A stretch of 64,000 nt of DNA. It comes from a virus. The stretch lies in IMG/VR virus record IMGVR_UViG_3300021961_000023. One strand, 5' to 3'. Position numbers and translations under genes: made by a program. Below the pieces are notes generated by a model. The model had not been told where the DNA came from and ran no database searches. It worked only from the letters and a program-made list of their open reading frames with translations. Position 1 is the stretch's first letter. Every line of letters begins with the position of its first letter. This document shows positions 18,344 to 64,000 of this stretch, piece by piece.

Positions 18344-19393
18344 ATGTTTGAATATTTTTATCACCAGATCCTTAGAAAGACTGTTATTTCTTTTGGAACT
18401 CTTTTCAACAACATTTATATTCGTCACACTAATGGTGCGGGACAAGAAGTTAGTGTGATGAAAGTTCCCTTGGCATATGGACCAACCCAAAAGTTTTTAG
18501 CAAGAGTCCAACAATCAGAAAATCTGAATAAACCAGTTCAGTTATCTCTACCAAGGATGTCATTTGAGTTTACAAGTTTAACTTATGATCCAAGTAGAAA
18601 AGTTACTACAACTCAAACATTTCAATCGGTTAAAAGTCTAGGAGATAAGACTGCGGTTAAAAAGGTTTATATGCCAGTTCCATATAATATGGAGTTTGAG
18701 TTGTCAATTATGGCAAAGCAGAATGATGATTGCCTTCAAATCATTGAGCAGATTCTGCCATATTTTCAACCTGCATATACTATGTCAGTAAATCTCATCA
18801 GTGATATTGGTGAAAAAAGAGATATTCCAGTGATTCTTGATAGGATCACTATGAGAGACGACTACGAAGGAGATTTTTCTACGAGAAGAGTTCTCTATTA
18901 TACTTTAACATTTACTGCTAAAACATATCTGTTTGGTCCTGTCAATACCGCGACTGGCATTATTAAAACAGCAACTATTGATTATATGTCAGGAGTTGAT
19001 CCTACACAAGCAAGAAGAGAACAGCGTTATAGTGTTGCTCCTCGGGCCGTTCGTGATTACAATGTTGATCAAACAACCACAGTTGTTGAAGATGTAAATA
19101 AAGTTTCAACTATTATTAGTGTAAGTAGTGTTGCTGGTTTAAGTGAAAGGTCATATATCAATATCAATGGTGAACAAATGAGGATTAATAAAATTGATGG
19201 AACAAATATAGTTGTAGAAAGGGCAAAAGATGGCACAGAAGCTATTGAACATCCCATTGGTTCATACATTAATGTAGTTAATGCTGCAGATACAGAACTC
19301 ATTGAGGTTGGAGATGATTTTGGATTTAATGAAACACTATCATTCTTCCAAGACTTTAAAGAGTACAGTCCTTCTCGTGGTGAGGATATTTAA
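18344..19393 (+). CDS. gp15: Tail sheath stabilizer / completion protein gp15
   Basis: YFYHQILRKTVISFGTLFNNI, KVPLAYGP, LPRMSFE, QIIEQILPYFQP. Confidence 0.93.
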   Translation: MFEYFYHQILRKTVISFGTLFNNIYIRHTNGAGQEVSVMKVPLAYGPTQKFLARVQQSENLNKPVQLSLPRMSFEFTSLTYDPSRKVTTTQTFQSVKSLGDKTAVKKVYMPVPYNMEFELSIMAKQNDDCLQIIEQILPYFQPAYTMSVNLISDIGEKRDIPVILDRITMRDDYEGDFSTRRVLYYTLTFTAKTYLFGPVNTATGIIKTATIDYMSGVDPTQARREQRYSVAPRAVRDYNVDQTTTVVEDVNKVSTIISVSSVAGLSERSYININGEQMRINKIDGTNIVVERAKDGTEAIEHPIGSYINVVNAADTELIEVGDDFGFNETLSFFQDFKEYSPSRGEDI

Positions 19394-19824
19394 TGAAAAC
19401 CGATACTTTTGATGATCTAAATGAAACTTTTAATGTTTCTGCTGAGATTGTACCAAAAGAAATACAATCTGAGATCTCAAATATTATTTCAGAAAAAGAT
19501 TCTAAAAAAACTGATATTCAAAGAGACTATGAATATAGCAGAGGAAATCTATATTCATTGATTGAAAAAGGTCAAGAAGCAATTAATGGCATTCTTGAAC
19601 TTGCTCAAGAAAGTGAAATGCCAAGAGCATATGAAGTCGCTGGACAACTGATTAAAAATGTTTCTGAAGCAACTGAGAAACTAATGGATCTTCAAAAGAA
19701 ACTAAAAGATATTGAAGAGGAAACGGTTCAAAAAGGACCAACAACTGTTAATAATGCCCTTTTTATAGGGTCAACAGCTGATTTACAAAAGTTATTAAAA
19801 TCTAAAGACATAAATAATCAATAA
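19393..19824 (+). CDS. gp16: Terminase small subunit gp16
   Basis: DYEYSRGNLY, PRAYEVAGQLIK, NNALFIGSTADL. Confidence 0.93.
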   Translation: MKTDTFDDLNETFNVSAEIVPKEIQSEISNIISEKDSKKTDIQRDYEYSRGNLYSLIEKGQEAINGILELAQESEMPRAYEVAGQLIKNVSEATEKLMDLQKKLKDIEEETVQKGPTTVNNALFIGSTADLQKLLKSKDINNQ

Positions 19825-20606: not shown

Positions 20607-22268
20607 ATGGCGGCACCAGTTCTACAGTTTAGAAGAGGTCTTCTCGCAAACCTACCAGCTTTGAGAGCAGGTGAGCCTGGTTTTGCGACTGATAGTTACG
20701 ATATCTTTGTCGGACTAACCTCTCAATCTGGAAATAATAAGTTTTTTGGTTCTGCTCGTTACTGGAACAAAGAAACCTCAACTGTTGGAAGTTCAGTTAG
20801 AGTTGTTGAGGGAACCAATAACGGTGCAAACTATATTGCACTTAAATCACCAGATTCCCTCGCAGGAGATGTAACTTACACTCTACCTGGAACCATTACT
20901 GCAGGAAACTACTTGACAGTAGATGGTACTGGTCAGCTAAGTTGGGTTAACCTGACTGCTGCTGGCGCTGCTTTTACAGGCGCAACTCTTGACAATACTT
21001 TAATCACTGGCGTAACCACTATAAGTGGAAGTATAAACAGCAGTGCAAACTCCACATTTTCTGGTATAACGACGTTTACAAATACAACAGATAATACCTT
21101 AGGAGACGAAAATACTGGAGCTGTTCAACTTGATGGCGGTATGGGTATCGCCAAGAACCTCACAGTTAAACAGAATCTTCATGTTGGTGGATATTCTGAG
21201 TTTGTTGGTGTTGTAACGTTTAAAGGTGGAACAATCAATCTTGGTGATGCAAATACAGACGACATTAATGTTGCGGGTGAGTTTATCTCAAGTTTGAATC
21301 CAAATGCTGATGCTACCTATGACATTGGTGATGGAGCAAACACTAAGAGATGGAGACATGCAAGTTTTTCTGGAGTAGGAACTTTTGCAACTGGTGCTGT
21401 CGTAGATGCTATTCAGATTGGTATTACTGCAGCATCAGAGATTGATACTTCAAGTGGGGATCTTACATTAGATTCTGCTACTGGAACTACAAACATCGAT
21501 GATAACTTAGTTGTAACTGGTGATGTTAGAATCAATGGTAACGACATCCAAGCAAGTGACGGAAATACAAATATAACTCTTACATCTAATACATTAACAA
21601 CTTTTGCTGGTGATATTAGAGTTAACGGCAATGACATTCAGGCATCTGATGGTAACACCAACATCACGATGACCTCCAATACCTTAACTTCTGTTGCAGG
21701 TGATCTTAAGGTTGGTGGTAATGATATTCAAGCATCGGATGGTAATACCAACATCACGATGACTTCAAACACTTTGACAACCCTTGCAGGTGATTTAAAG
21801 ATTAATGGTAATGATATTCAATCAAGTGCTGGTAATACAGTTATTACACTTGCAAACGATGATGCCACTTTTGCAAGTGATGTAACAGTTGGTGGAAACC
21901 TTTATGTTAATGGATCAACAACTCAAGTTAATACAACTTCATTAACTGTTGAAGATAGTTTGATTGAACTTGGATTTGTTGATGGTGTTGCACCTACCTC
22001 AGATCTAAACAAAGATCTTGGACTATTATTTAACTATTATACTACATCAGCTAAAAAGGCGGCAGTATATTGGGATGATTCAACACTAAGAATAGTTGTT
22101 GCTTCTGAAGTTTCTGAATCTACTGGCGTTTTGACTCCTACAACTTATGCAGATTTTGAGATTGGTTCACTTTATGTAAACGATTGTGCAGGAAGTAGTA
22201 AAGTTATTACTTGTACTGGAAGCGAAAGACTATTAGAAAACATCACAATCGACGGTGGTGCATTCTGA
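20607..22268 (+). CDS. Tail fibre-like protein with 30-aa tandem repeats
   Basis: N-terminal LQFRRG...L.AGEPGF (fibre N-terminal motif), GAVQLDGGMGIAKNLTV, VGGNLYVNGSTTQVNT, C-terminal IDGGAF. Confidence 0.75.
   Translation: MAAPVLQFRRGLLANLPALRAGEPGFATDSYDIFVGLTSQSGNNKFFGSARYWNKETSTVGSSVRVVEGTNNGANYIALKSPDSLAGDVTYTLPGTITAGNYLTVDGTGQLSWVNLTAAGAAFTGATLDNTLITGVTTISGSINSSANSTFSGITTFTNTTDNTLGDENTGAVQLDGGMGIAKNLTVKQNLHVGGYSEFVGVVTFKGGTINLGDANTDDINVAGEFISSLNPNADATYDIGDGANTKRWRHASFSGVGTFATGAVVDAIQIGITAASEIDTSSGDLTLDSATGTTNIDDNLVVTGDVRINGNDIQASDGNTNITLTSNTLTTFAGDIRVNGNDIQASDGNTNITMTSNTLTSVAGDLKVGGNDIQASDGNTNITMTSNTLTTLAGDLKINGNDIQSSAGNTVITLANDDATFASDVTVGGNLYVNGSTTQVNTTSLTVEDSLIELGFVDGVAPTSDLNKDLGLLFNYYTTSAKKAAVYWDDSTLRIVVASEVSESTGVLTPTTYADFEIGSLYVNDCAGSSKVITCTGSERLLENITIDGGAF
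21516..21872 (+). repeat. Four in-frame 90-bp (30-aa) tandem repeats
   Basis: Units start at 21516, 21606, 21696 and 21786; consensus xGD[VIL][RK][IV]xGNDIQASDGNTNIT[LM]TSNTLT. Confidence 0.9.
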
Positions 22269-22292
22269 TTAAAATAAAAAATCTAAATAAGA

Positions 22293-22314
22293 GGGTGGGT
22301 AACCACCCCTTTTT
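22293..22314 (+). terminator. Rho-independent terminator
   Basis: GGGTGG-GTAA-CCACCC followed by CTTTTT. Confidence 0.75.
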
Positions 22315-22328
22315 AGTAGGTAAGTGAA

Positions 22329-22535
22329 ATGACTGAACAAGATCTTCAATATTTACTTAAAGTATATCAAGATAAATCCTTTGATCTTTTTTCTCAAACT
22401 ATTGCATTGCAAGCAAAAGTTAATAAGATTTTGGAAGTGAATGCAGAACTTGGAAAAAGAGTTCAAGAACAACAAGAAGAAATTCAGAAACTAGAGTCTA
22501 GATTATCTCGGAAGAAACCAAATGAAAACGTTTAG
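22329..22535 (+). CDS. Small coiled-coil hypothetical protein
   Basis: ORF downstream of late promoter; heptad pattern. Confidence 0.7.
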   Translation: MTEQDLQYLLKVYQDKSFDLFSQTIALQAKVNKILEVNAELGKRVQEQQEEIQKLESRLSRKKPNENV

Positions 22536-22677
22536 ACAGTTTCAAGAGGAGTGGTCAAATAAATATAAAAAGAGTATTGATTGCTCTAATCCAAAAGGAT
22601 TTTCTCAACGTGCTCATTGTGCAGCGAGAACAAAGAGAGCATCAGGACAACAAACCAAATCAAAACCAGTGGAATGA
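22522..22677 (+). CDS. 51-aa basic peptide, putative internal head protein (not in ORF track)
   Basis: Hand translation MKTFRQFQEEWSNKYKKSIDCSNPKGFSQRAHCAARTKRASGQQTKSKPVE; its stop overlaps the next ATG (ATGA). Confidence 0.75.
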   Translation: MKTFRQFQEEWSNKYKKSIDCSNPKGFSQRAHCAARTKRASGQQTKSKPVE

Positions 22678-24458
22678 AATATCAAAAGTTTTCTCATAAA
22701 ACACCACACCTTAAGGGTAAGCAACATCAGTTGGATCCAAATTTGGATCTGAAGCAACTTGTCCATCATGCAACTGTTCAGTATGTTGATCGTGATGCAG
22801 ACGGTGATGTGGATGTTTATGACACCCCCAAGAAAAAAACTCCAGATGAGAATCCTGTTGGAGACTATGTATCGAAGTCTAAAAAACTGATTGCAAAACA
22901 AAAGGGTGAAATCAAACATACCAAAAGAGGTATGGCTTTTGAAGAAAAGGAGAACGGTCGTTGTAAATCAGGTCATTACTATTGCTATACAGATAAAAAA
23001 TGCAAACCAATTCCTTCTGGATTTATGGTAGATCCAGAAGGAATGCTCCGCAAGGAAAATGGACATTCAGTTGATGATGTCAATGAAGAAGGGCTTCGTG
23101 ACTGGTTTGGCAAATCAAAATCAAAAGATGGAAAATCTGGATGGGTAAATGTCGTAACTGGTGGTACTTGCGCTAGTGATGAACCTGGAGAAGGAACTCC
23201 AAAATGCGTTTCTTCAGCAAAAAGAGCAAGTATGACTAAAGCAGAAAGGTTATCTGCGGCAAGAAGAAAAAAAGCAGCTGATCCTGGTCAGCAACAAAAA
23301 ACTGGTGCTGCAAAACCAACATATGTTTCAACTGATAAACCAAAGAAAAAAATGAACGAAGCAAAAGAAAAAGATCATGAATATTCAATGGCTCGTTCAG
23401 AACTTTCTACGATCATGAACGCTGCTAAAAGACTTAAATCCAAAATGAAAGGTGAAGGTAATATTGAGGCATGGGTTCAATCAAAAATCACTAAAGCAGC
23501 AGATTACTTAGATGCTGCAGCTGACTATGTTGACAGTGGAGAAATGAATGAAGAAGCAGATAAATCAGGAAAGTCTAGTGGTAAAAAAGACGCTTGCTAC
23601 CACAAAGTCAAATCTCGTTATAGAGTTTGGCCAAGTGCATACGCTTCAGGTGCCCTTGTAAAGTGTCGCAAAGTTGGTGCTGATAGTTGGGGTACAAAAT
23701 CAGAATCAATCACCATTGAAACCGCAGACGGTAGGACATACGCTGAGTTTATTGATATCATTGGATCTGAAGAAATGCTAGAGGCAGCAAAAAAATGCTG
23801 GCCTGGTTACAAAAAAACAGGGACACAAAAACTCTTCGGCAAAACTTATAATCGTTGCGTAAAAGAAGATGAGCATGAAAAAGAAGAAAAAATAGAATGT
23901 TCTCATACAAAGAAAGGCATTCAATGTCCTATTCATGGAGAAGATGAGTGTCCATTAGTTAAAGGAATGAAACAAGAAGTTGATGAAGCAGTAAGAATTC
24001 CTGCAAAAACTGGCAATATTATTCTTGTAACTCTTTCCTGGAGAGGAAAAGTTTACATGATTAAGATGTTTTTCCCTCAGGTTTCTAAACCAAGCAGAAG
24101 TGATGTTCAACTTCAGATTGATAAAGTTTATCCTGGGGCAAGAGTTAACTCATATTACATTTCAGAAATAAAACCTGGAGAACAGTTTTTACAAACTGAG
24201 GATTGGCAATCAGTTAATCGTAAAGACAAAACTGATGGTTTAAGTCAAAAAGCAGTTGATGCTTATCGTAGCGAAAATCCAGGTTCAAAACTTCAGACTG
24301 CAGTGACAGAAAAGAAACCAGAAGGTAAAAGAGCGAAACGTCGTGCTTCTTTCTGTCGTCGTATGAAAGGAATGAAATCAAAACTAACTAGTGCAAAAAC
24401 TGCACGAGATCCAGATTCAAGAATCAACAAAGCACTCCGTCGTTGGAACTGTAACTAA
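22674..24458 (+). CDS. Modular basic/Cys-rich protein, putative internal head polyprotein
   Basis: ATG at 22674 is translationally coupled to the upstream ORF (preferred over TTG 22617); string of small basic modules separated by hydrophobic-X-E linkers. Confidence 0.75.
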   Translation: MKYQKFSHKTPHLKGKQHQLDPNLDLKQLVHHATVQYVDRDADGDVDVYDTPKKKTPDENPVGDYVSKSKKLIAKQKGEIKHTKRGMAFEEKENGRCKSGHYYCYTDKKCKPIPSGFMVDPEGMLRKENGHSVDDVNEEGLRDWFGKSKSKDGKSGWVNVVTGGTCASDEPGEGTPKCVSSAKRASMTKAERLSAARRKKAADPGQQQKTGAAKPTYVSTDKPKKKMNEAKEKDHEYSMARSELSTIMNAAKRLKSKMKGEGNIEAWVQSKITKAADYLDAAADYVDSGEMNEEADKSGKSSGKKDACYHKVKSRYRVWPSAYASGALVKCRKVGADSWGTKSESITIETADGRTYAEFIDIIGSEEMLEAAKKCWPGYKKTGTQKLFGKTYNRCVKEDEHEKEEKIECSHTKKGIQCPIHGEDECPLVKGMKQEVDEAVRIPAKTGNIILVTLSWRGKVYMIKMFFPQVSKPSRSDVQLQIDKVYPGARVNSYYISEIKPGEQFLQTEDWQSVNRKDKTDGLSQKAVDAYRSENPGSKLQTAVTEKKPEGKRAKRRASFCRRMKGMKSKLTSAKTARDPDSRINKALRRWNCN

Positions 24459-24775
24459 TGAAAAGTTTTAAGCAATTCTTATCAGAGTCAGTAAATATCT
24501 CTGGTGATTTCAATGGAAACTTGTATATAAACTCTCAACCAGAAGAACCACAACAGGTTGGAGAGAGTTATGCTGCTGATGTTATGTGGCAGGGTAGCAT
24601 CTACAGATTAGAGTTAATAACTAAATCTGGACTGCCAACTAAACAAGAACTAGGTGAACAACTTCAAGGAGAATATCCTGGTGCAGTTGTGCAACAAATT
24701 TATCCAGCAATGGAAAAAAATCAAAATATTACAAATATAAAAAGATACCATCCATCAAAGTTAGAGTGGATTTGA
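24458..24775 (+). CDS. Hypothetical protein with capsid-targeting-like N-terminus
   Basis: MKSFKQFLSE N-terminus; YPGA domain paralogous to a module in the upstream ORF. Confidence 0.8.
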   Translation: MKSFKQFLSESVNISGDFNGNLYINSQPEEPQQVGESYAADVMWQGSIYRLELITKSGLPTKQELGEQLQGEYPGAVVQQIYPAMEKNQNITNIKRYHPSKLEWI

Positions 24776-24779
24776 TTTT

Positions 24780-26219
24780 ATGGCACAGTGGAATATACAG
24801 ATTCAAGATTATTTAAATCAAGAAAGATCTTTATTTGAAGTTGTTGGAGTTGCTTCCAGTGATGGGCAAATTATTAGTATTGAAAATCCATTTCCAGTTA
24901 CGGGTACTATTGGAATACAAACTGGATCGGGCTTAATTATTAATCCAGATACCACATCATATGATGCTTTTGGTAGACAAAGAATTTCTGAACCATTTAC
25001 CCTTGGTGATTATAAACATCTATATGCTATTGATACTAATTTTATAGACAGTTCATCAGGAGCTGGTTCAACAGTTTCGTTGATACCAAACCAAGCAGCA
25101 GCAAGATTACAAACGGGTATTGGAAGTACAGCATTTTGTATTCATCAAACAAAGTTTTATCATCACTATCAACCAGGAAAATCACAACTAATTTTTAGTT
25201 CTTTTAATTTCTATGCACCTCAGCAAAATGCAACAAAAAGAACTGGATATTTTGATGATAGAGATGGTATTTACTTAGAGCAAGTAGGTCTTAACACATC
25301 TAATGGTATTAACGCTGGTATAGGAACCTATAACTGGGTCATCAGAACTTTTACAAGTGGTATTGCAACTGAAACAAGAATTCCACAATCACAATGGAAT
25401 AAAGATAAGTGTGATGGAACTGGTACTTCTGGTTTCAATGCCGACTTTACAAAAACTCAACTAGCATTTATTGATTTTCAGTGGTTAGGTGTTGGTAGAG
25501 TTCGTTGTGGTTTTGCTCATGATGGAAAATTAATTACAGCACATGAATTTTATCACTCAAACAATAATCCAAATGTTTATATTTCAAATCCAAACCTACC
25601 AGTTCGTTGTGAAATAAGAAATACTGGTGTAGGTATTGGAGCATCGTTTGATCAAATCTGCTCTACTGTTGCTAGTGAAGGTGGATATGTAGAAAGCGGT
25701 GTTGATTTTGCATATACGATGGAAACTACACGAACAGTCGTAGCTCCAGGTGGAACAGAACTCCCACTAGTTGCAATTCGTCTCAAAAATAATTTCCAAG
25801 GATATCCAAACAGAATATCAGTTAGATTAAATAATATTTCTCTTTATGCGGAGACTAATAGTATTGTTTATAAAATAGTTAAACTTCCAAGCACTGCTTA
25901 TATTGGACTAACCACTTTAGGTAGTGGAACTATTTGGACTTCTGCTTCTGCTAATAGTGGAGTTGAATATTGCACTAACGCTACAGTTTATAGTGATGGT
26001 GATGTGTTTGCTTCTGGATATGTACCATCAGGCGCATCTCAGAACTCATTGTCTCCAGTTGCATCTGGGGCACTTACATCAGCAAAGAAAAACATTATTG
26101 TTCAAAATATTGACTCAACAAATTCAGAAATTTACGCAATTATTGTAAGAACAGTATCAACTAGTGTTGGTGCCGTTGCCCAAGTAGCAGCTTCACTTCA
26201 GTGGAGAGAAATTTATTAA
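24780..26219 (+). CDS. Putative virion structural protein (beta-rich)
   Basis: DAFGRQRISEPFTL, YQPGKSQ, IDFQWLGVGRVRCGF, LPVRCEI motifs; late cluster. Confidence 0.65.
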   Translation: MAQWNIQIQDYLNQERSLFEVVGVASSDGQIISIENPFPVTGTIGIQTGSGLIINPDTTSYDAFGRQRISEPFTLGDYKHLYAIDTNFIDSSSGAGSTVSLIPNQAAARLQTGIGSTAFCIHQTKFYHHYQPGKSQLIFSSFNFYAPQQNATKRTGYFDDRDGIYLEQVGLNTSNGINAGIGTYNWVIRTFTSGIATETRIPQSQWNKDKCDGTGTSGFNADFTKTQLAFIDFQWLGVGRVRCGFAHDGKLITAHEFYHSNNNPNVYISNPNLPVRCEIRNTGVGIGASFDQICSTVASEGGYVESGVDFAYTMETTRTVVAPGGTELPLVAIRLKNNFQGYPNRISVRLNNISLYAETNSIVYKIVKLPSTAYIGLTTLGSGTIWTSASANSGVEYCTNATVYSDGDVFASGYVPSGASQNSLSPVASGALTSAKKNIIVQNIDSTNSEIYAIIVRTVSTSVGAVAQVAASLQWREIY

Positions 26220-26228
26220 GGTGAAAAT

Positions 26229-27872
26229 ATGAGTGAAGTTTATCTTGGTAATCCAAATCTTAAAAAAGCAAATACTGTAATTGAGTTTAGTGAAGATCAG
26301 ATTCTTGAATTTATTAAATGTAAAAATAATCCAGTATACTTTGCAAAAAACTATGTAAAGATTGTAACTCTTGATCATGGTTTACAACCTTTTGAGATGT
26401 ATCCCTTTCAAGAGAAATTGATTCGTAACTTCCATGATCACAGATTTAATATCTGTAAGATGCCTAGACAAACAGGTAAGTCAACAACTTGTGTTTCTTA
26501 TCTATTACATTATGCGGTTTTTAATGACAATATCAATATTGCTATTCTTGCAAATAAAGCATCAACTGCAAGAGATCTTTTAAGTAGGTTACAACTTGCG
26601 TATGAAAACTTGCCTAAGTGGATGCAACAAGGTATCTTATCATGGAATAAAGGTTCTTTAGAGTTAGAAAATGGCAGTAAGATATTGGCAGCTTCTACAT
26701 CTGCGAGTGCTGTCCGAGGCGGTTCATATAATGTCATCTTCCTCGACGAGTTCGCTTTCATTCCAAACCATATTGCAGACCAATTCTTTGCATCTGTTTA
26801 TCCTACTATTTCTTCTGGTAAGAGCACAAAAGTTATCATAGTTTCAACTCCACACGGTATGAATCATTTCTACCGTATGTGGCATGATGCAGAAAAAGGA
26901 GCAAATGAATATATTCCAACTGATGTTCATTGGACTGAAGTGCCAGGAAGAGACTTGGAGTGGAAAAGGCAGACGATTGCAAACACATCTGAGCAACAGT
27001 TTAAAGTTGAGTTTGAATGTGAGTTTTTAGGTTCAGTTGATACTCTGATTGCACCAAGTAAACTAAGATCGTTGGTATATGAAAATCCTAAAACTGGAAA
27101 TGCTGGGTTGGATGTCTATGAAGATCCTATTGATAACCATGATTATATTATTACTGTTGACGTTGCCCGTGGAGTTGGTATCGACTATTCTGCTTTTGTT
27201 GTTATAGATATTACAACATTTCCTCATAAAGTTGTTGCAAAATATAGAAATAATGAAATCAAACCTATGTTATTTCCAAATGTAATTTGGGAAATAGCAA
27301 AATCATATAATCAGGCATTTATCTTATGTGAAGTAAATGATGTTGGTGATCAAGTAGCATCTATTCTTCAATATGATTTAGAGTATCAAAATCTTCTTAT
27401 GTGTTCAATGAGAGGAAGAGCAGGTCAAATTGTTGGACAAGGATTTTCAGGCAAAAAAACTCAACTTGGTGTCAAGATGAGTAAGACTGTCAAAAAAGTT
27501 GGAGCACTCAATCTAAAAACAATGATTGAGGAAGACAAGTTATTGATTAATGATTATGAAATCATTTCAGAACTTACAACTTTTATTCAAAAAAATAACT
27601 CGTTTGAAGCAGAAGATGGATGTAATGATGACCTAGCAATGTGTCTTGTAATCTATGCGTGGTTAGTAGCTCAAGATTATTTTAAAGAACTGACCGATCA
27701 AGATGTTCGCAAAAGACTTTATGAGGAGCAAAAAAATCAAATAGAACAAGATATGGCACCATTTGGATTTGTTTCAGATGGTTTAGATAATCCTAGTTTT
27801 GTAGACTCTGATGGAGATAGGTGGTTTGCTGATGAATATGGAGATAGATCATTTATGTGGGAGTATTTGTGA
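26229..27872 (+). CDS. gp17: Terminase large subunit gp17
   Basis: PRQTGKST Walker A, IFLDEFAF Walker B, IVSTPHG, DVARG, NDDLAM nuclease motifs. Confidence 0.97.
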   Translation: MSEVYLGNPNLKKANTVIEFSEDQILEFIKCKNNPVYFAKNYVKIVTLDHGLQPFEMYPFQEKLIRNFHDHRFNICKMPRQTGKSTTCVSYLLHYAVFNDNINIAILANKASTARDLLSRLQLAYENLPKWMQQGILSWNKGSLELENGSKILAASTSASAVRGGSYNVIFLDEFAFIPNHIADQFFASVYPTISSGKSTKVIIVSTPHGMNHFYRMWHDAEKGANEYIPTDVHWTEVPGRDLEWKRQTIANTSEQQFKVEFECEFLGSVDTLIAPSKLRSLVYENPKTGNAGLDVYEDPIDNHDYIITVDVARGVGIDYSAFVVIDITTFPHKVVAKYRNNEIKPMLFPNVIWEIAKSYNQAFILCEVNDVGDQVASILQYDLEYQNLLMCSMRGRAGQIVGQGFSGKKTQLGVKMSKTVKKVGALNLKTMIEEDKLLINDYEIISELTTFIQKNNSFEAEDGCNDDLAMCLVIYAWLVAQDYFKELTDQDVRKRLYEEQKNQIEQDMAPFGFVSDGLDNPSFVDSDGDRWFADEYGDRSFMWEYL

Positions 27873-31166: not shown

Positions 31167-32828
31167 ATGACAAAACTATTTGGTTTCTCTATTGAAGATA
31201 ACGAACCAAAATCACCTACTACACTTTCCCCCGTTCCTCCTAATAATGAGGACGGGGTTGACCATTATCTGAGTAGTGGGTTTTTTGGTTCGTATGTTGA
31301 TATTGAAGGAGTTTATAGAACTGAGTTTGATCTCATCAAAAGATATCGTGAAATGGCACTCCATCCAGAAGTTGATAGTGCCATTGAAGATATTGTTAAC
31401 GAAGCAATCGTTTCAGATTCAAATGACTCACCTGTTCAGATTGAGTTATCAAATTTGAATGCAAGTGATGGTATTAAGAAAAGAATAAGACAAGAGTTTA
31501 AGCATATTTTAGACTTATTGGATTTTGATAAAAAATCTCATGAGATTTATCGTAACTGGTATATTGATGGTAGACTCTATTATCACAAAGTTATTGATAT
31601 AAAGAAACCAGAAGAAGGTATTCAAGAGTTAAGGTACATTGACGCAATGAAAATGCGCTTTGTTCGTGAAAATAAAAATAAAATGGATGATAATCAGCGT
31701 CGTTTATCATCTGTTGCAAATCAAAATCCTTTGGAATATGCTTTTCCAGAAATTGAAGAGTACTATATTTACACTCCAAAAGCATCTTATCCAATAGGAA
31801 ATCCAACAGCAGTAAGTGCAGATAAGGGTATTAGATTCGCAAAAGATTCTATTACATATTGCACTTCTGGATTAGTAGATAGAACAAAAGGCACAACACT
31901 TTCATATCTTCATAAGGCAATCAAAGCAGTTAACCAATTGAGAATGATCGAAGATTCTCTGGTTATCTACAGATTGTCTCGTGCTCCAGAAAGAAGAATC
32001 TTCTATATTGATGTTGGTAACTTACCTAAGGTAAAAGCAGAACAATATCTTCGTGATGTTATGATGCGTTATCGTAACAAACTTGTATATGATGCAAATA
32101 CAGGTGAGATTCGTGATGATAAAAAGTACATGGCAATGCTAGAAGATTTCTGGCTTCCACGTAGAGAAGGTGGTCGTGGTACTGAAATTTCAACTCTTCC
32201 TGGTGGACAAAATCTTGGCGAAATCACAGATATCGAATATTTTAAGAAAAAACTTTTCCGTGCTTTAAATGTCCCACCATCAAGAATGGATGGAGAGGGT
32301 GGATTCAATCTCGGTCGTTCATCAGAAATTTTAAGAGATGAACTTAAGTTCACTAAGTTTGTTGGACGTTTGAGAAAGAGATTCTCAAATATGTTCAATG
32401 ATATGCTCAGAACTCAACTTCTTTTAAAAAATATTGTCACTCCAGAAGATTGGGAAGTAATGAGTGAGCATATTCAATATGATTTCTTATATGACAACCA
32501 CTTCTCTGAACTTAAAGATGCAGAACTATTGACTGAAAGATTGAATCTTGTTTCAACTGCGGAACCATATGTTGGCAAATATTTTTCACAAGATTACTTG
32601 CGTCGTAAGATTCTACGTCAAACTGATGTTGAAATTCTTGAGCAAGATGCACTAATCGAAAAAGAAATCAAAGAAGGAATCATTCCAGATCCAAATGCTC
32701 CCGTTGATCCAGAAACAGGTGCTCCTTTAAATGGTGGTGACTTAGGTGCTCCAATAAATGAACCTGATTTAGAATCTCAAGGAGCAGCAACTGAAGCACC
32801 AGAATTACCTAAGGGTGGAGAAATATAA
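31167..32828 (+). CDS. gp20: Portal protein gp20
   Basis: RAPERRIFYIDVGNLP, EDFWLPRREGGRGTEISTLPGG. Confidence 0.98.
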   Translation: MTKLFGFSIEDNEPKSPTTLSPVPPNNEDGVDHYLSSGFFGSYVDIEGVYRTEFDLIKRYREMALHPEVDSAIEDIVNEAIVSDSNDSPVQIELSNLNASDGIKKRIRQEFKHILDLLDFDKKSHEIYRNWYIDGRLYYHKVIDIKKPEEGIQELRYIDAMKMRFVRENKNKMDDNQRRLSSVANQNPLEYAFPEIEEYYIYTPKASYPIGNPTAVSADKGIRFAKDSITYCTSGLVDRTKGTTLSYLHKAIKAVNQLRMIEDSLVIYRLSRAPERRIFYIDVGNLPKVKAEQYLRDVMMRYRNKLVYDANTGEIRDDKKYMAMLEDFWLPRREGGRGTEISTLPGGQNLGEITDIEYFKKKLFRALNVPPSRMDGEGGFNLGRSSEILRDELKFTKFVGRLRKRFSNMFNDMLRTQLLLKNIVTPEDWEVMSEHIQYDFLYDNHFSELKDAELLTERLNLVSTAEPYVGKYFSQDYLRRKILRQTDVEILEQDALIEKEIKEGIIPDPNAPVDPETGAPLNGGDLGAPINEPDLESQGAATEAPELPKGGEI

Positions 32829-32852
32829 TAAATATAAAAGTGTTATATCTTT

Positions 32853-33038
32853 ATGTCAATGGATGATCTTTTAGATATGGTGGTGAGCGATGAGTCACCA
32901 TCTCAAATTAGTGACGAAATCAAAAATTTACTTTTTGCAAAAGCTGCAGAACGAGTAGATGCTTTTCGTCCAGAAGTTGCCAACAGCATGTTTGGAGAAC
33001 AAGAAGTAGATGATTCTGAGGAAGAAACTGAAGAATAA
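32853..33038 (+). CDS. Small acidic prohead core protein (gp67-like)
   Basis: Lies between gp20 and gp21; AKAAERVD...EVANSMF helix and acidic tail. Confidence 0.6.
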   Translation: MSMDDLLDMVVSDESPSQISDEIKNLLFAKAAERVDAFRPEVANSMFGEQEVDDSEEETEE

Positions 33039-33079
33039 GCGGTATTTATAAATAACTAGTAAATGAACTTTAAACTATA

Positions 33080-33631
33080 ATGGCACATAGACCAGTTGGT
33101 ATTTCATCTTCAATAGCAATAAGTGCAACTTCTGCACAGTCTTCAGCATTTTCTGTTCAATCAGATGTTCTAAGACTTGTTGCTGTTGGAGCAGGAGCTC
33201 ATGTTGCGATTGGAACGGAACCAACTGCAACCACTGCTAGTTATTATATTGCAAGTGGGCAATCAGCAACTCTTGCATTAACCAAAGCATCAAATAGAGT
33301 TGTAGGTGTAATCACTGGAACAACGACTACTATCATTTTCCCAGAAGGTACTCAGTGTCCATTTGGTGTTGGTGATTATGTTAGTCTGACTGCAAGTGGA
33401 CAAGATTACTATAACTTTACACATCAACCAGTTACAGCAGTTGATACTTCATCTAGTTTTAATGGATATCATCAAACTAGATGCACAATCGGAACTAATA
33501 CAAGTGGGATTGTAACTGCATTTTCCTCACCAGATGCAACTTTAAGAAGTTCTCTCAAAGTTGCAGCAAGAACTGATACTGGAACAGGAGTTCTTCATTT
33601 ACAACAAGTTCAATTATCAGGAAACGCATAA
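33080..33631 (+). CDS. Hypothetical virion protein
   Basis: ORF after TATAAATA late promoter; Ser/Thr-rich beta protein coupled to gp21. Confidence 0.7.
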   Translation: MAHRPVGISSSIAISATSAQSSAFSVQSDVLRLVAVGAGAHVAIGTEPTATTASYYIASGQSATLALTKASNRVVGVITGTTTTIIFPEGTQCPFGVGDYVSLTASGQDYYNFTHQPVTAVDTSSSFNGYHQTRCTIGTNTSGIVTAFSSPDATLRSSLKVAARTDTGTGVLHLQQVQLSGNA

Positions 33632-34281
33632 TGAAACTAATCAGAGAAGAAATCGAATCAGTAGAGTTTATCGTTGAGAATAAAAACGGTAAAAAATCAC
33701 TGTATATTGAAGGTGTATTCCTTCAAGGCGATATTAAAAATCGCAATGGAAGAATGTATCCAATGGAGACTCTTCGCCGTGAAGTTGCTCGTTATAATGA
33801 GAATCATGTTGTTGCTGGAAGAGCACTTGGAGAACTGGGTCATCCAGATGGACCAACAGTTAATCTTGATAGAGTTTCACACAAGATCGTTTCTCTAAAA
33901 GAAAGTGGATCTAACTTCATCGGTAAAGCAAAAATCCTCAGCACTCCTATGGGAAAAATTGCTGAGTCTTTAATCAGTGAAGGTGTAAAACTCGGTGTTT
34001 CTTCTCGTGGTATTGGTTCACTTGCTTTAAATAGGGAAGGGATCAATGTTGTTGGCGATGATTTCATGTTAGCAACTGCTGCTGATATTGTTGCCGATCC
34101 ATCTGCTCCCGATGCTTTTGTTGAGGGAATCATGGAAGGAAAGGAGTGGATATGGGATGGCGGTATTCTTCGTGAAAGATATGCAATGAATACTCGCAAA
34201 AAGATCAATACACTCGTAGATCAAAGAATGCTTGATGAACAGAAACTAAATCTTTTCCAAGATTTTTTAGCAAATCTGTAA
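33631..34281 (+). CDS. gp21: Prohead protease gp21
   Basis: NRNGRMYP, ALGELGHP, GVSSRGIGS, DIVADPSAPDAFV. Confidence 0.97.
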   Translation: MKLIREEIESVEFIVENKNGKKSLYIEGVFLQGDIKNRNGRMYPMETLRREVARYNENHVVAGRALGELGHPDGPTVNLDRVSHKIVSLKESGSNFIGKAKILSTPMGKIAESLISEGVKLGVSSRGIGSLALNREGINVVGDDFMLATAADIVADPSAPDAFVEGIMEGKEWIWDGGILRERYAMNTRKKINTLVDQRMLDEQKLNLFQDFLANL

Positions 34282-34331
34282 TTTTATAAATAAATATAGA
34301 TTAAAGTTATACAGTTAATCGGAGAGTTCAA

Positions 34332-35438
34332 ATGTCTCGTGGAGATTTACAAGAAATGGAGAATGGCACAAAGCAATCCAAAACTGCTGTCAATGCTGGT
34401 GCAAAAGCAGCGGAAGCAATGCCTAAGATGACTGATCCTGGAACCCAACTCGGTTCTATTGAGGATCTCGGTGGTCCTACCCCCGAAAACTACAAGTCTG
34501 ATGATGACTCAGCAAAACTAAAAACACCTGGAGCAACTCTGAAGCAAGTAAGAGATGTTGTTAACAAGGGTGCTAAAGCTGCTGATGCCATGAAGGGCAT
34601 GAAAGAAGATGAAGATCTCGACGACGAAGAACTCATTGAAGAAGAAACTGACGAGGAAACCATCGAGGAAGATTCTTCTTTCGATGAAGTTTCTGAGGAA
34701 GAAGTTGTAGAAGAGTATGACATCGAAGAAGATGTACAAGCACTTCTCAGTGGTGAAGAACTTTCCGAAGAGTTCAAAGAGAAAGCAAAAACAATCTTTG
34801 AAGCTGCACTTAATTCAAAAGTTGCCGAAATCAAAGAGGCAATGGAAGCTCAGTATGAGCAACAACTTCTTGAAGAAGTTGAAGAGATTAGAGTTGCGCT
34901 CTCTGAGCGTGTAGATTCTTATCTAGAGTACGTTGCTGATGAGTGGTTCCAAGAGAACGCTCTAGCAATCGAATACGGTCTTAAGACCGAAATGACTGAA
35001 TCCTTCATCACAGGTATGAAGGAACTTTTTGAAGCACATTATGTATCAATCCCTGAAGATAAATATGATGTTCTTGAGAGCATGGTAGAAAAACTTGATG
35101 ATATGGAGACAAAACTCAACGAGCAGATCGAGAAAAATATTTCCCTCAACAAGCGTCTCTCAGAGTCGGTTGCTGATGGTATCTTTGAACAAGTTTCTGA
35201 AGGGCTTGCTGCCACTCAGAAAGAGAAGCTCGCTTCACTTGCCGAAAGTGTAGAGTTTGAAAGTGAGGAAAAATATCGTGAGAAGCTGGAGATGCTGAAG
35301 GAGTCATACTTCTTCAATAAGCAAACTGCTCCAAAAGTTAAAGCAGAATCTCTTTCTGAAGGTGTAGACAATGCTCCTGAATCAGTTTCAGGTACAATGG
35401 CTGCATATCTGAAGACTTTATCTGCATTTAGCAAATAA
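34332..35438 (+). CDS. gp22: Prohead scaffolding/core protein gp22
   Basis: Acidic coiled coil, LSEEFKEKAKTIFEAA, YLEYVADEW; lies between gp21 and gp23. Confidence 0.95.
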   Translation: MSRGDLQEMENGTKQSKTAVNAGAKAAEAMPKMTDPGTQLGSIEDLGGPTPENYKSDDDSAKLKTPGATLKQVRDVVNKGAKAADAMKGMKEDEDLDDEELIEEETDEETIEEDSSFDEVSEEEVVEEYDIEEDVQALLSGEELSEEFKEKAKTIFEAALNSKVAEIKEAMEAQYEQQLLEEVEEIRVALSERVDSYLEYVADEWFQENALAIEYGLKTEMTESFITGMKELFEAHYVSIPEDKYDVLESMVEKLDDMETKLNEQIEKNISLNKRLSESVADGIFEQVSEGLAATQKEKLASLAESVEFESEEKYREKLEMLKESYFFNKQTAPKVKAESLSEGVDNAPESVSGTMAAYLKTLSAFSK

Positions 35439-35488
35439 TTGAATTTTATATAATATTCAAACCCAAACATTCACAAAGGTAACCCGCA

Positions 35489-36910
35489 ATGTTTCATTCC
35501 GAACAATTGCAGGAAAAGTGGGCACCTCTCCTCAACTATGAGGGTCTTGACACAATCAAAGATCCCCATCGTAGAGCGGTAACCGCCGTCCTGCTAGAGA
35601 ACCAAGAAAAATTCCTCCGTGAGCAATCTGCATTCGAGCAGGCTGGATCATTCCTCTCCGAGGCACCAACCAACGCTGTTGGTAATGGTGGTTTCACAGG
35701 TAGCGCAGCTGCTGCTGGCCCTACCGCTGGTTTCGATCCCGTTCTGATCTCGCTGATCAGACGTTCAATGCCAAACCTGGTCGCTTATGACCTGGCTGGT
35801 GTTCAACCAATGAGTGGTCCTACTGGACTCATCTTTGCAATGCGTTCACGCTACATCAATCAGACTGGCTCTGAAGCCTTCTTCGATGAAGTAGATACCG
35901 CATTCTCTGGTCAACCACAAGGTCGTGACGACGCAAACGGTTTCGTTGACGTTGCTGCTGGTCTTGGTACCACTGCTCAGAGCGGCACTAACCCTGCAGT
36001 TCTGAACCCAGTTGGCACTGCTGCTTCAACCGACTATAGAGTTGGTGAAGGTATGCGTACCGACTCTGCTGAGAATCTGGATGGTACAGGCAATGATGCC
36101 TTCAACCAGATGGCATTCAGCATCGAGAAGGTAACTGTTACTGCTAAGAGCCATGCTCTGAAAGCAGAATACAGCCTCGAGCTGGCACAAGACCTTAAGG
36201 CAATCCATGGTCTGAACGCTGAAGCGGAACTCGCCAACATTCTCTCCACTGAGATTCTGGCTGAGATCAACCGTGAAGTTATCAGAACCATCTACAAGGT
36301 TGCTGAGCAAGGTGCTGTACAAAACACTGCTACCGCTGGTGTATTTGACCTCGATGTTGACTCCAACGGTCGTTGGTCGGTTGAGAAGTTCAAGGGTCTT
36401 CTGTTCCAAATCGAGCGTGATGCGAATGCTATCGCACAGCGTACTCGTAGAGGAAAGGGCAACATCATCATGTGTTCTGCAGACGTTGCTTCTGCACTGA
36501 CCATGGCTGGTGTTCTCGACTACACCCCTGCACTCAACGCTAACCTGAACGTTGATGATACTGGCAACACCTTTGCTGGTACTCTGATGGGCAAGTTCCG
36601 CGTATATATTGACCCATATGCTGCTAACTTGACTTCGAATAATGCTGGTCCAACAGGTGGTAACCAGTACTACGTTGTTGGTTATAAGGGCACTTCTCCT
36701 TATGACGCTGGACTCTTCTATTGTCCTTATGTTCCTCTCCAAATGGTTCGTGCCGTTGGTGAGAACAGCTTCCAGCCTAAGATCGGCTTCAAGACCCGTT
36801 ATGGTCTTGTTTCCAATCCTTTCGCAGAAGGCACAAATCAAGGTCTGGGTCGTCTCCAAGTTAACAGCAACCGCTACTACAGAAGAGTTGCTGTTAAGAA
36901 CCTCATGTGA
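35489..36910 (+). CDS. gp23: Major capsid protein gp23
   Basis: GVQPMSGPTGLIFAMR, ELAQDLKAIHGL, FQPKIGFKTRYG. Confidence 0.99.
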   Translation: MFHSEQLQEKWAPLLNYEGLDTIKDPHRRAVTAVLLENQEKFLREQSAFEQAGSFLSEAPTNAVGNGGFTGSAAAAGPTAGFDPVLISLIRRSMPNLVAYDLAGVQPMSGPTGLIFAMRSRYINQTGSEAFFDEVDTAFSGQPQGRDDANGFVDVAAGLGTTAQSGTNPAVLNPVGTAASTDYRVGEGMRTDSAENLDGTGNDAFNQMAFSIEKVTVTAKSHALKAEYSLELAQDLKAIHGLNAEAELANILSTEILAEINREVIRTIYKVAEQGAVQNTATAGVFDLDVDSNGRWSVEKFKGLLFQIERDANAIAQRTRRGKGNIIMCSADVASALTMAGVLDYTPALNANLNVDDTGNTFAGTLMGKFRVYIDPYAANLTSNNAGPTGGNQYYVVGYKGTSPYDAGLFYCPYVPLQMVRAVGENSFQPKIGFKTRYGLVSNPFAEGTNQGLGRLQVNSNRYYRRVAVKNLM

Positions 36911-60991: not shown

Positions 60992-61807
60992 ATGGACTCT
61001 AGAGATTTGCGTGCCCTATCAGAAGCATACGCGAGTGTGTATTCTTCACAAGTTCAAGAAGATGTAGATCAACTTGATGAGATTTCATATGATCTAGCTC
61101 TTCGTGCTTCTAAAGCAGCAGATATTAAGCGTGGGAAACTTGCTCATGCTGGTGATAATGAAGGTGCTTCACAAAAAGCAGCACAAGCAAAACGTCTTTA
61201 TCAAGCTCAGGCCAAGAAGAGATTGAATAGAGAAGAAGTTGATGTATTTGACGCTGTTCTTGAGTTCCTTTGTGTAGAAGGATACGCAGAAACTCTGGAA
61301 GAAGCAGAGTGGATGATGGCGAATGTGATTGATGAGGAAGCGATTGATATTATTCTTGGTGAAGCAATCACTAGCGAAAAAGGTAAAGCAAAAGCAGCAG
61401 AAATGATTGCTAAGCGCACTACTGCTTCTGGTAAAGCAAAATCAGGAGAGGGTGATACTGTTGCTCAGATCAAACATATTAGTCGTTCTAGTAGAGAAGG
61501 TCTTAGTGGAACTCCTGCTACTCGTTCTACTTCTGGTTCAAACCGTCCAAAATCATATTCTGGAATGAGTGGGACTGGGAACAAGGCAGCAAGAAGAGCG
61601 GGTTTAACACCAACCAGAGAAAAACCAAATGCTTGGAAAGAAGAATATGTAGATGAAGCACAAGCAGCAAGAGAAAATCCAGAGAAGTATGAAAGAGAGC
61701 AGGCAAAGAAATCTGCTCCTGTTCGTGGAGAAAGAACTCCTATGCCACCAAGAGGTGATAAGCGTAGAGAGGACTTTGAAAAGTGGTATCGTGCTAATGT
61801 TCGCTGA
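60992..61807 (+). CDS. Putative internal head protein
   Basis: Late promoter at 60957; LSEAY N-terminus; alternating acidic and basic modules. Confidence 0.65.
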   Translation: MDSRDLRALSEAYASVYSSQVQEDVDQLDEISYDLALRASKAADIKRGKLAHAGDNEGASQKAAQAKRLYQAQAKKRLNREEVDVFDAVLEFLCVEGYAETLEEAEWMMANVIDEEAIDIILGEAITSEKGKAKAAEMIAKRTTASGKAKSGEGDTVAQIKHISRSSREGLSGTPATRSTSGSNRPKSYSGMSGTGNKAARRAGLTPTREKPNAWKEEYVDEAQAARENPEKYEREQAKKSAPVRGERTPMPPRGDKRREDFEKWYRANVR

Positions 61808-63106: not shown

Positions 63107-64000
63107 ATGAAGAGTTTTACACGATTCTTATCTGAAGCATCTACTGCTGTTGTTCAAGCAACTCGCCTTGGATTAAAAGGTGACGGTCATGGTGGATGGT
63201 ACGATAAAAAAGGTGAGTTTGTCGCAAAGACAGAAAAGGGTAGATTGAAGTTTTATAATAAGAATGAGCGTCCTGGAAAGGATGGTCCTCAGGGAGCATC
63301 TGCTCCTGCTCCTGCTCCAGAACCAGCACCACAAGCGTCCTCTCAAGCACAGCAGGAACCTCAGGAAGGGGAGTTTGGAACGTTCCCAGATGGCACTCCT
63401 CGTCGAATGCCACCACCAGTAAACGCAGACGGATCTCCAAAGGAGGATCGTGGTGAAGTTACTTTAACTTTTGGTAGATTTAACTTCCCAACAACTGGAC
63501 ATGAGAAACTCTTCAATCAAGCAAAGAAAGTTGCTGGCAAGGGAGATCTTCGTATCTATCCATCCCGTTCTGTAGATCCGAAAAAGAATCCTCTTGATCC
63601 TGATGAAAAGGTTGAAATCATGCATCAGATGTTCCCTGATTATTCAAGGAACATTGTGAATGATCCTAATGTAAAAACTATTTTTGATGCACTTAAGCAA
63701 GCACATGAAGATGGATATACAAAGGTAAAGATTGTTGTTGGTGGAGACAGAGTAAACGAGTTTGAAAAAATGTCTTCTTCATATAATGGAAAGTTATACG
63801 ATTTCTCTAACTTAGAAACTGCGTCAGCAGGGGAAAGAGATCCTGATGCTGAAGGATTAGAGGGAATGTCTGCTTCTAAAATGAGGAAAGCAGCTGCTGA
63901 AAACGATTTTGAAACTTTCCGTTCAGGAGTTCCTCAACATATTGATGATAAAACCGCGAAGATGTTTATGAATACTCTTCGTAAAAAAATGAAAGTTACT
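63107..64000 (+). CDS. Cytidylyltransferase-like (HxGH superfamily) nucleotidyltransferase, 3'-truncated (not in ORF track)
   Basis: Hand translation MKSFTRFLSEA...TFGRFNFPTTGHEKL...VVGGDR...GMSASKMR; open to the window end; late promoter at 63081. Confidence 0.85.
   Translation, partial: MKSFTRFLSEASTAVVQATRLGLKGDGHGGWYDKKGEFVAKTEKGRLKFYNKNERPGKDGPQGASAPAPAPEPAPQASSQAQQEPQEGEFGTFPDGTPRRMPPPVNADGSPKEDRGEVTLTFGRFNFPTTGHEKLFNQAKKVAGKGDLRIYPSRSVDPKKNPLDPDEKVEIMHQMFPDYSRNIVNDPNVKTIFDALKQAHEDGYTKVKIVVGGDRVNEFEKMSSSYNGKLYDFSNLETASAGERDPDAEGLEGMSASKMRKAAAENDFETFRSGVPQHIDDKTAKMFMNTLRKKMKVT

Follow-up and report, generated by a model that had tools for sequence, protein, structure and literature searches.

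A shuffled string of small modules with hydrophobic-x-Glu joints in a T4-like cyanophage: a candidate head-packaged polyprotein

The 594-residue reading frame and its modules

The window analysed here is a 64,000-nucleotide (nt) stretch of viral DNA (IMG/VR virus record IMGVR_UViG_3300021961_000023) from a new T4-like cyanomyovirus, whose major capsid gene showed ~80% DNA identity to those of SynMITS9220M01, Bellamy and S-SM2. An open reading frame (ORF) of 594 amino acids (aa) at 22674..24458 (+ strand, as are all the features located below in the form start..end) was flanked in a tight cassette by two small ORFs, of 51 aa (22522..22677) and 105 aa (24458..24775). Its ATG overlapped the stop codon of the 51-aa ORF as ATGA, and its TAA overlapped the ATG of the 105-aa ORF as TAATG, in agreement with the translational coupling claimed in a preliminary description of this DNA. 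The ATGA overlap and the same 51-aa ORF were kept in a relative, contig L010, whose large ORF was 76% identical. The preliminary description had read the 594-aa product as a string of small basic peptides that are released by the prohead protease inside the head, and every module motif that it listed was found.

The product was divided into modules 0–9 (a bar marks a proposed cleavage site). Module 0 (aa 1–90; 22674..22943) was conserved and predicted to be disordered (predicted local distance difference test score, pLDDT, <40); it contained an acidic motif, DRDADGDVD, but no [LIVMF]-x-E, and ended in MAFE|E. The DRDADGDVD string is similar to calcium-binding loops. Module 1 (aa 91–138; 22944..23087), at the N-terminus in many relatives, was a C-x6-C-x5-C beta-hairpin mini-domain (pLDDT ~77 for 100–129) ending in DVNE|E. 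Module 2 (aa 139–229; 23088..23360) was basic, read GLRDWF..GWVNVV..C..PKCV, matched phrog_12753 at 141–230 and ended in KMNE|A. Module 3 (aa 230–293; 23361..23552; phrog_32745) was an acidic helical hairpin, DHEYSMAR..WVQSKIT, with pLDDT ~85 and the end EMNE|E. Modules 4–5 (aa 294–370; 23553..23783; phrog_38880) comprised KGKxSGxK-DACY..WPSAYASG..KCR and a variable tail ending in EMLE|A. Module 6 (aa 371–398; 23784..23867) was a beta-hairpin, KCWPGY..NRC (pLDDT 75–85), running on as NRCVKE into its end CVKE|D. Module 7 (aa 399–438; 23868..23987) was a variable acidic three-Cys stretch, C..CPIHG..C, matching phrog_32143 at 396–427 and ending in EVDE|A; its model confidence was low and it was an indel hot spot. 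Module 8 (aa 439–509; 23988..24200), VRIPAKTGN..YPGA, was the best-folded module (pLDDT ~90) and ended in LQTE|D. The C-terminal module 9 (aa 510–594 and stop; 24201..24458), SFC..RWNC, had an isoelectric point (pI) of 10.7 and matched DUF6321 (PF19846; E 1.5e-13, 51.6 bits against a cutoff of 28.5) at residues 517–591, covering positions 2–72 of the 72 in the profile. If cut at the joints, the protein would yield fragments of 3–10 kDa with predicted pI values of 9.8–10.7 (four), 9.4 (one), 8.0 (one) and 4.9–6.1 (three). The term “small basic peptides” suited about half of these fragments, which were strongly basic, and did not suit the three with pI 4.9–6.1.

In an AlphaFold model built from an 89-sequence alignment, the protein appeared as beads on a string (predicted template modelling score 0.28). 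Confident mini-domains were predicted at residues 100–129, 181–205, 236–293, 306–334, 371–399, 444–503 and 510–594, joined by linkers of pLDDT <50, and all eight proposed cleavage sites lay inside linkers or at their edges. The predicted structure thus consisted of separate mini-domains and not of a single domain, the outcome that would have spoken against a polyprotein.

Module 9 alone had a Pfam family, and separate PHROGs matched separate sub-parts of the ORF. A Foldseek search of the PDB gave nothing at E ≤0.001, with weak generic matches to small phage proteins, and a sequence search of the PDB gave no match up to E 1. BFVD and the ESM Atlas returned family members only, all annotated as hypothetical or DUF and offering no functional lead. 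No internal-protein family was matched in PHROG or Pfam, and likeness to the T4 internal proteins IPI, IPII and IPIII was restricted to the N-terminal tag described below.

Shuffled modules and conserved joints

The 594-aa ORF was a member of the T4-GC119/phrog_727 family (phrog_727 profile match over residues 75–593, E 4.5e-108), with 47–61% identity to SSM2_109 of S-SM2 and ORF29 of S-SCSM1. The family is very large: clustering at 90% left >8,000 relatives, and clustering at 50% left 7,815 representatives. Joints were surveyed in 240 relatives, and joints and module order in 141 representatives <50% identical to each other. About 60 different module orders occurred among the 141 representatives (e.g. 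2469, 12469, 2649, 324689, 36249 and 6429), and in an alignment of 120 relatives the indel hot spots coincided with the proposed module borders. In P-SSM4 the modules were distributed across four ORFs, one of which combined modules that in the window sit in separate genes, the 594-aa ORF and the ORF at 60992.

Modules also stood alone. Separate tiny basic single-module genes were found in Roseobacter phage CRP-901, P-SCSP1c, Skadi-3 and Pra-JY27, and module 9 occurred by itself in the T7-like podovirus P-SCSP1c, in the pelagiphage Skadi-3 and in a Planktothrix phage. Multi-module fusions were seen in T4-like cyanophages only; the four non-T4-like phages examined had single-module genes. The shuffled orders and the stand-alone copies in other phages indicated that the modules are independent units. 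In CRP-901, within a cluster of tiny basic genes, an unannotated 54-aa ORF (L009 2477–2641) was a stand-alone module 4 (DACY..WPSAYGSG..KCRK), and an overlapping 91-aa ORF with a TTG start (L009 2598–2873) was a stand-alone module 2.

Judged by its sequence, the 271-aa ORF at 60992–61807 also belongs to this module pool, as a second member located elsewhere in the window. Sites of the hydrophobic-x-Glu type occurred in it several times (LSE|A, LDE|I, LGE|A and VDE|A). Its stretch 61058–61222 matched the C-terminal module of PSSM4_156 of P-SSM4 with 58% identity, and the middle part of PSSM4_156 matched modules 4–6 of the 594-aa ORF. In some family members (P0018, P0024, P0046 and SSM2_109 of S-SM2) DUF192 (PF02643) was inserted between modules, and others carried DUF5661 or DUF5872, so larger domains also travel within the module strings.

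According to the preliminary description nearly every module is preceded by a linker of the type hydrophobic-x-Glu. All eight linkers that it named were found, with Glu at 90, 138, 229, 293, 370, 398, 438 and 509, and six of them had the proposed form; AFE|E and QTE|D lacked Leu, Ile, Val, Met or Phe two residues before Glu. At the residue 90 joint a scan for these residues read F-E-E instead, with Glu 91. The whole protein contained nine [LIVMF]-x-E strings, seven at junctions and two (498 and 546) inside modules, where they fell within folded parts of the AlphaFold model.

In the relatives, eight unrelated modules were anchored on a conserved motif, and [LIVMF]-x-E was sought in the few residues upstream, with same-size windows placed at random as background. 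Of the distinct internal contexts in the 240 relatives, 396 of 480 had the motif ahead of the module, and in the 141 representatives this held for 365 of 447 internal junctions, against 3–25% of random windows. By module, the representatives had it at 56/86 junctions for module 2, 110/114 for module 4, 90/97 for module 6 and 14/14 for module 8 (20/20 for module 8 in the 240 relatives). It was present regardless of which module lay upstream. Across 697 distinct junctions Glu was preceded by a polar residue and followed by A, G, E, D or K; two positions ahead of it stood V (28%), I (23%), L (21%), M (19%) or F (6%). The linkers were thus conserved as a hydrophobic-x-Glu joint in divergent relatives, whatever module preceded. 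A DNA-level recombination signal as the origin of the motif was considered unlikely, since only amino-acid classes were conserved.

T4-type prohead proteases cleave after Glu (PMC5694885). The window encoded, at 33631..34281, a prohead protease of the gp21 type (phrog_207, E 2e-81), which would presumably do the processing; it kept the residues aligned to H85 and S140 of T4 gp21. The gp23 major capsid protein (35489..36910; phrog_138) contained a propeptide site, GSFLSE58|A59, which could be aligned position by position to GSFLTE|AEIG, where T4 gp23 is matured; the FLSE|A site claimed earlier was therefore present and corresponded to the T4 cleavage site FLTE|A. As a sequence pattern, the junction motif has the same form as this gp23 site and as the sites cut by T4 gp21. 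The large ORF combined autonomous domains in one frame with a recurrent site of the gp23 form (at 82% of junctions in the relatives), the features of the class of protease-processed viral polyproteins.

Capsid-targeting-like tags, virion data and genome setting

T4 IPII and IPIII begin with MKTYQEFIAE (NC_000866). As previously claimed, the N-termini of the two small ORFs resembled this capsid-targeting sequence: the 51-aa ORF read MKTFRQFQE|E, followed by a basic two-Cys module (WSNKYKKSIDC..HC), and the 105-aa ORF read MKSFKQFLSE|S, followed by a module-8-like YPGA domain (phrog_1742). A tag was defined over the ten N-terminal residues as an aromatic residue at positions 4 and 7, a hydrophobic residue at 8 and Glu at 10. 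The 105-aa ORF had this pattern, as had an ORF at 63107..64000 that continues past the window end (MKSFTRFLSE|A), and the 51-aa ORF (MKTFRQFQEE) nearly so, with Q at position 8. Both full tags ended in FLSE, identical to the gp23 site. In T4, targeting depends on tag positions 4 and 7, and processing on positions 8 and 10 (PMC9026906). Among 120 relatives of the 105-aa ORF, M1, K2, F/Y4, F7, I/L/M8 and E10 were kept, while positions 3, 5, 6 and 9 varied.

The ORF at 63107 was the cyanophage core cytidylyltransferase/NMNAT-like protein, and its orthologues began similarly, with MKKFSAFLKE (P-SSM4), MKSFFQFLSE (S-SM2) and MKSFLQFLKE (S-SCSM1 ORF91). This enzyme has been repeatedly detected in virions (PMC3037559; PMC9602691 section 13), and from its tag we predict that it is a second head cargo. 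The T4-like tags, their conserved key positions and the tagged NMNAT-like orthologues in virions suggested that the T4 loading mechanism is probably conserved in these cyanophages. The pattern also matched T4 gene 61.1 (NC_000866 18966–19130), which is annotated as hypothetical, is no known internal protein and begins with a near-perfect tag, MKTFKEFIKE, so the pattern alone is no proof of packaging. Either gene 61.1 codes for a packaged protein so far overlooked, or the tag pattern lacks specificity.

Several observations linked the tags to the joints. The family of the 105-aa ORF was homologous to module 8 (hhalign probability 94.3%, E 1e-7; BLASTP of module 8 against the 105-aa ORF was not significant), and this profile comparison makes the ORF a paralogue of that module, tagged and standing alone. 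The 51-aa module was fused N-terminally to the polyprotein in relatives P0015, P0091, P0094 and P0101, and its mature start, E|xW, was identical after its tag and after internal joints. Whole tag-like strings also occurred inside the chains of relatives, directly before a module, e.g. GKTFQDFMNE|CW (module 6) and LKSFDEFMSE|AS. The module both fused and split, the shared E|xW start, the tagged paralogue and the internal tag-like strings fit an origin by fusion and fission of tagged genes. SSM2_108 of S-SM2 (L002 1773–2201) read TPTNSVGNGGYT after its tag MKTLKQFLKE|, similar to the mature gp23 N-terminus in the window, APTNAVGNGGFT, and carried an internal tag-like KTFEEFRE|SW ahead of a 51-aa-type module.

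Relatives of the large ORF have been found in purified virions of two phages. S-SM1 virions gave 13 counts for T4-GC119, the cluster to which the S-SM2 and P-SSM4 homologues belong; S-PM2 lacks it (PMC3037559 Table S8). ORF29 of S-SCSM1, 47% identical to the 594-aa ORF, is a virion protein by mass spectrometry (PMC9602691); the supplementary files of that paper held no peptide-level data for it. The same authors caution that some of the proteins detected may be contaminants of caesium chloride (CsCl) preparations (PMC9602691).

The cassette lay among structural and packaging genes. Upstream were gp16, the small terminase (19393–19824), and two small ORFs with a fibre-like gene (20607–22268); downstream were a virion structural protein (24780–26219; phrog_1645), gp17, the large terminase (26229–27872), and the portal, gp21 protease, gp22 and gp23 genes (within 31167–36910). 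The position of the large ORF between gp16 and gp17 was common to S-SM2 and contig L010. First in the cassette was a 68-aa coiled-coil ORF (22329..22535), overlapping the 51-aa ORF by 14 nt; it gave weak coiled-coil Pfam matches only and was missing from L010, which makes it a non-essential part. A CTAAATA motif (22283–22289), followed by a GC hairpin and T-run (22293–22308; whole element 22283..22308), stood 46 nt upstream of the cassette. Nine copies of CTAAATA occurred in the window, six of them (at 22283, 13330, 31136, 36958, 60956 and 61953) 29–48 nt 5′ of ORF starts, that of the portal gene included. From this placement CTAAATA appears to be the form that the T4 late promoter, TATAAATA, takes in this phage, and may serve as such. 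The T4 sequence TATAAATA itself was found ahead of the ORFs at 33080 and 34332.

Proposed processing, alternatives and known systems

We propose, with a rough probability of 0.55, that the 594-aa product is packaged into the head as a precursor that gp21 cuts at its joints. A single late precursor would consist of about nine small, independently folding modules connected by flexible linkers, each ending in hydrophobic-x-Glu. It would be incorporated into the prohead core together with the tagged products of the two coupled small ORFs, and the gp21-type protease would then cleave after each junction Glu, as it would cleave gp23 at FLSE|A. The resulting 3–10 kDa proteins would remain in the DNA-filled head; roughly half would be strongly basic, and many would contain paired cysteines. 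Such strings would have evolved as small tagged genes fused and split, a tag's cleavage Glu turning into a junction Glu. The strongly conserved 90 N-terminal residues may offer another means of targeting or of binding the scaffold. As to function, we can only guess that the released pieces are co-packaged DNA-associated or injected proteins. The cargo reading of the preliminary description was in this way supported in part, by independent modules, conserved joints, tagged neighbours, a gp21-type protease with its gp23 site and relatives in virions, and we infer from these the location in the head interior and the cleavage. A broader proposal, which we offer tentatively as rather less secure, is that T4-like cyanophages use the prohead protease as a decoder: a swappable string of mini-proteins from one late gene would come apart in the capsid, be packaged along with tagged enzymes (e.g. 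the NMNAT-like protein) and be injected with the DNA, as a combinatorial, rapidly reshuffled cargo with >7,800 clusters at 50% identity.

Several points weigh against packaging and cleavage. The large ORF itself starts with MKYQKFSHKT, which lacks the tag pattern; an N-terminal tag was present in only 1 of the 141 representatives, which leaves entry into the prohead without an explanation. The published proteomes report presence only, and for no member has a cleavage product been seen. About 18% of junctions had no strict motif (e.g. KSGDEG-LRDWF and KVSVKD-EEYSM), and many had M or V two residues before Glu, a position at which L or I is preferred in T4 gp21 sites. At other Glu residues of these proteins hydrophobic-x-Glu was not depleted (22% against ~20% for other residues), in a comparison where many modules of the relatives had no anchor in the set. 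DUF6321 is present also in phages without a T4-type protease. In the main rival reading these proteins would instead be uncleaved multi-domain virion or DNA-associated proteins, whose joints are fusion scars (former start codons or former tags) and uncut linker ends. The rarity of N-terminal tags and the lack of depletion fit this reading, and such scars would match the complete internal tag-like strings. They would also explain why module-first proteins frequently begin with M-x-E-G (MQEGT-, MNEGS-, MINEEG- or MQEG-W), as expected of relic start codons, and why M, at 15–25% of residues two before Glu, is far over its usual frequency; relic start codons thus appear to contribute to the motif. 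However, drift from ATG would also yield T, K and R, and the position remains V, I, L, M or F. Glu is conserved in eight unrelated modules across clusters <50% identical, and a scar has no cause to keep the exact form of the gp23 site. Among the phages examined, the multi-module fusions were confined to T4-like cyanophages. On balance we consider the scar reading the less likely one, yet one to be taken seriously.

It is quite improbable, in our view, that the product is a late non-packaged protein (e.g. an assembly or DNA-handling factor) detected in virions by carry-over, its motif serving another reader or protease. The caution over CsCl preparations bears on this, as does the lack of a match to any solved structure or functional family; moreover, Syn9 has the family, yet its virion gave no detection (PMC3037559 Table S8), which likewise counts against packaging. 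Detection in two independent virion proteomes (S-SM1 and S-SCSM1) speaks for a true virion protein, together with the place of the gene among structural and packaging genes, downstream of a late-promoter-like motif and coupled to two tagged ORFs. Programmed frameshifting between the 51-aa and 594-aa ORFs would attach a tag covalently to the polyprotein, and the two frames are one base apart at the ATGA overlap and the two parts fused in one frame in P0015, P0091 and P0094. No slippery heptamer was found at GTG GAA TGA AAT, and the same ATGA split was kept in L010, which fits termination-reinitiation coupling; frameshifting was rejected as highly improbable.

If the joints are cut as proposed for the head-packaged precursor, one gene would give about nine small virion-carried proteins, and thousands of relatives would reshuffle the same pieces. 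The internal-protein and capsid-targeting paradigm of T4 would extend to marine cyanophages, and the T4-like cyanophages are among the most abundant viruses of the ocean. A tagged NMNAT-like enzyme would account for its recurrent detection in cyanophage virions. The proposal would also provide a function-level handle on a very large family of ocean-virus proteins annotated as hypothetical (DUF6321 and its partners) and a natural polyprotein format for loading cargo into capsids. Prior annotation of the T4-GC119/phrog_727/DUF6321 family was only “hypothetical” or “virion protein”, and in the literature that could be searched no modular, junction-motif, polyprotein or capsid-targeting reading was found for cyanophages.

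Adenovirus pVII and pX/mu are basic DNA-associated proteins that are packaged as precursors and trimmed in the capsid by a virion protease. They offer an analogy only, as the virus, protease and sequences are unrelated and the precursors are not multi-module polyproteins. In the giant phages phiKZ, 201phi2-1 and SPN3US, a protease related to gp21 processes proteins of the head interior after the Glu of a short motif, A/S/G-x-E, in some cases at several positions (PMC5694885). Those proteins are large and lose propeptides, unlike the shuffled strings of 3–10 kDa modules described here, and the residue two before Glu is small there and hydrophobic here. The T4 internal proteins IPI, IPII, IPIII and Alt share with the present system a ten-residue tag (MK[ST][FY]xxF[ILMQ]xE here and MKTYQEFIAE in T4) ending in Glu within the hydrophobic-x-Glu context of the major capsid site, a gp21 homologue in the genome, small and often basic products, and a gene content that is polymorphic between related phages. 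The mature regions have no sequence similarity. The system described here, known from sequence, further differs in that one frame strings together many modules, with internal sites recurring along it, and that the large ORF itself is untagged.

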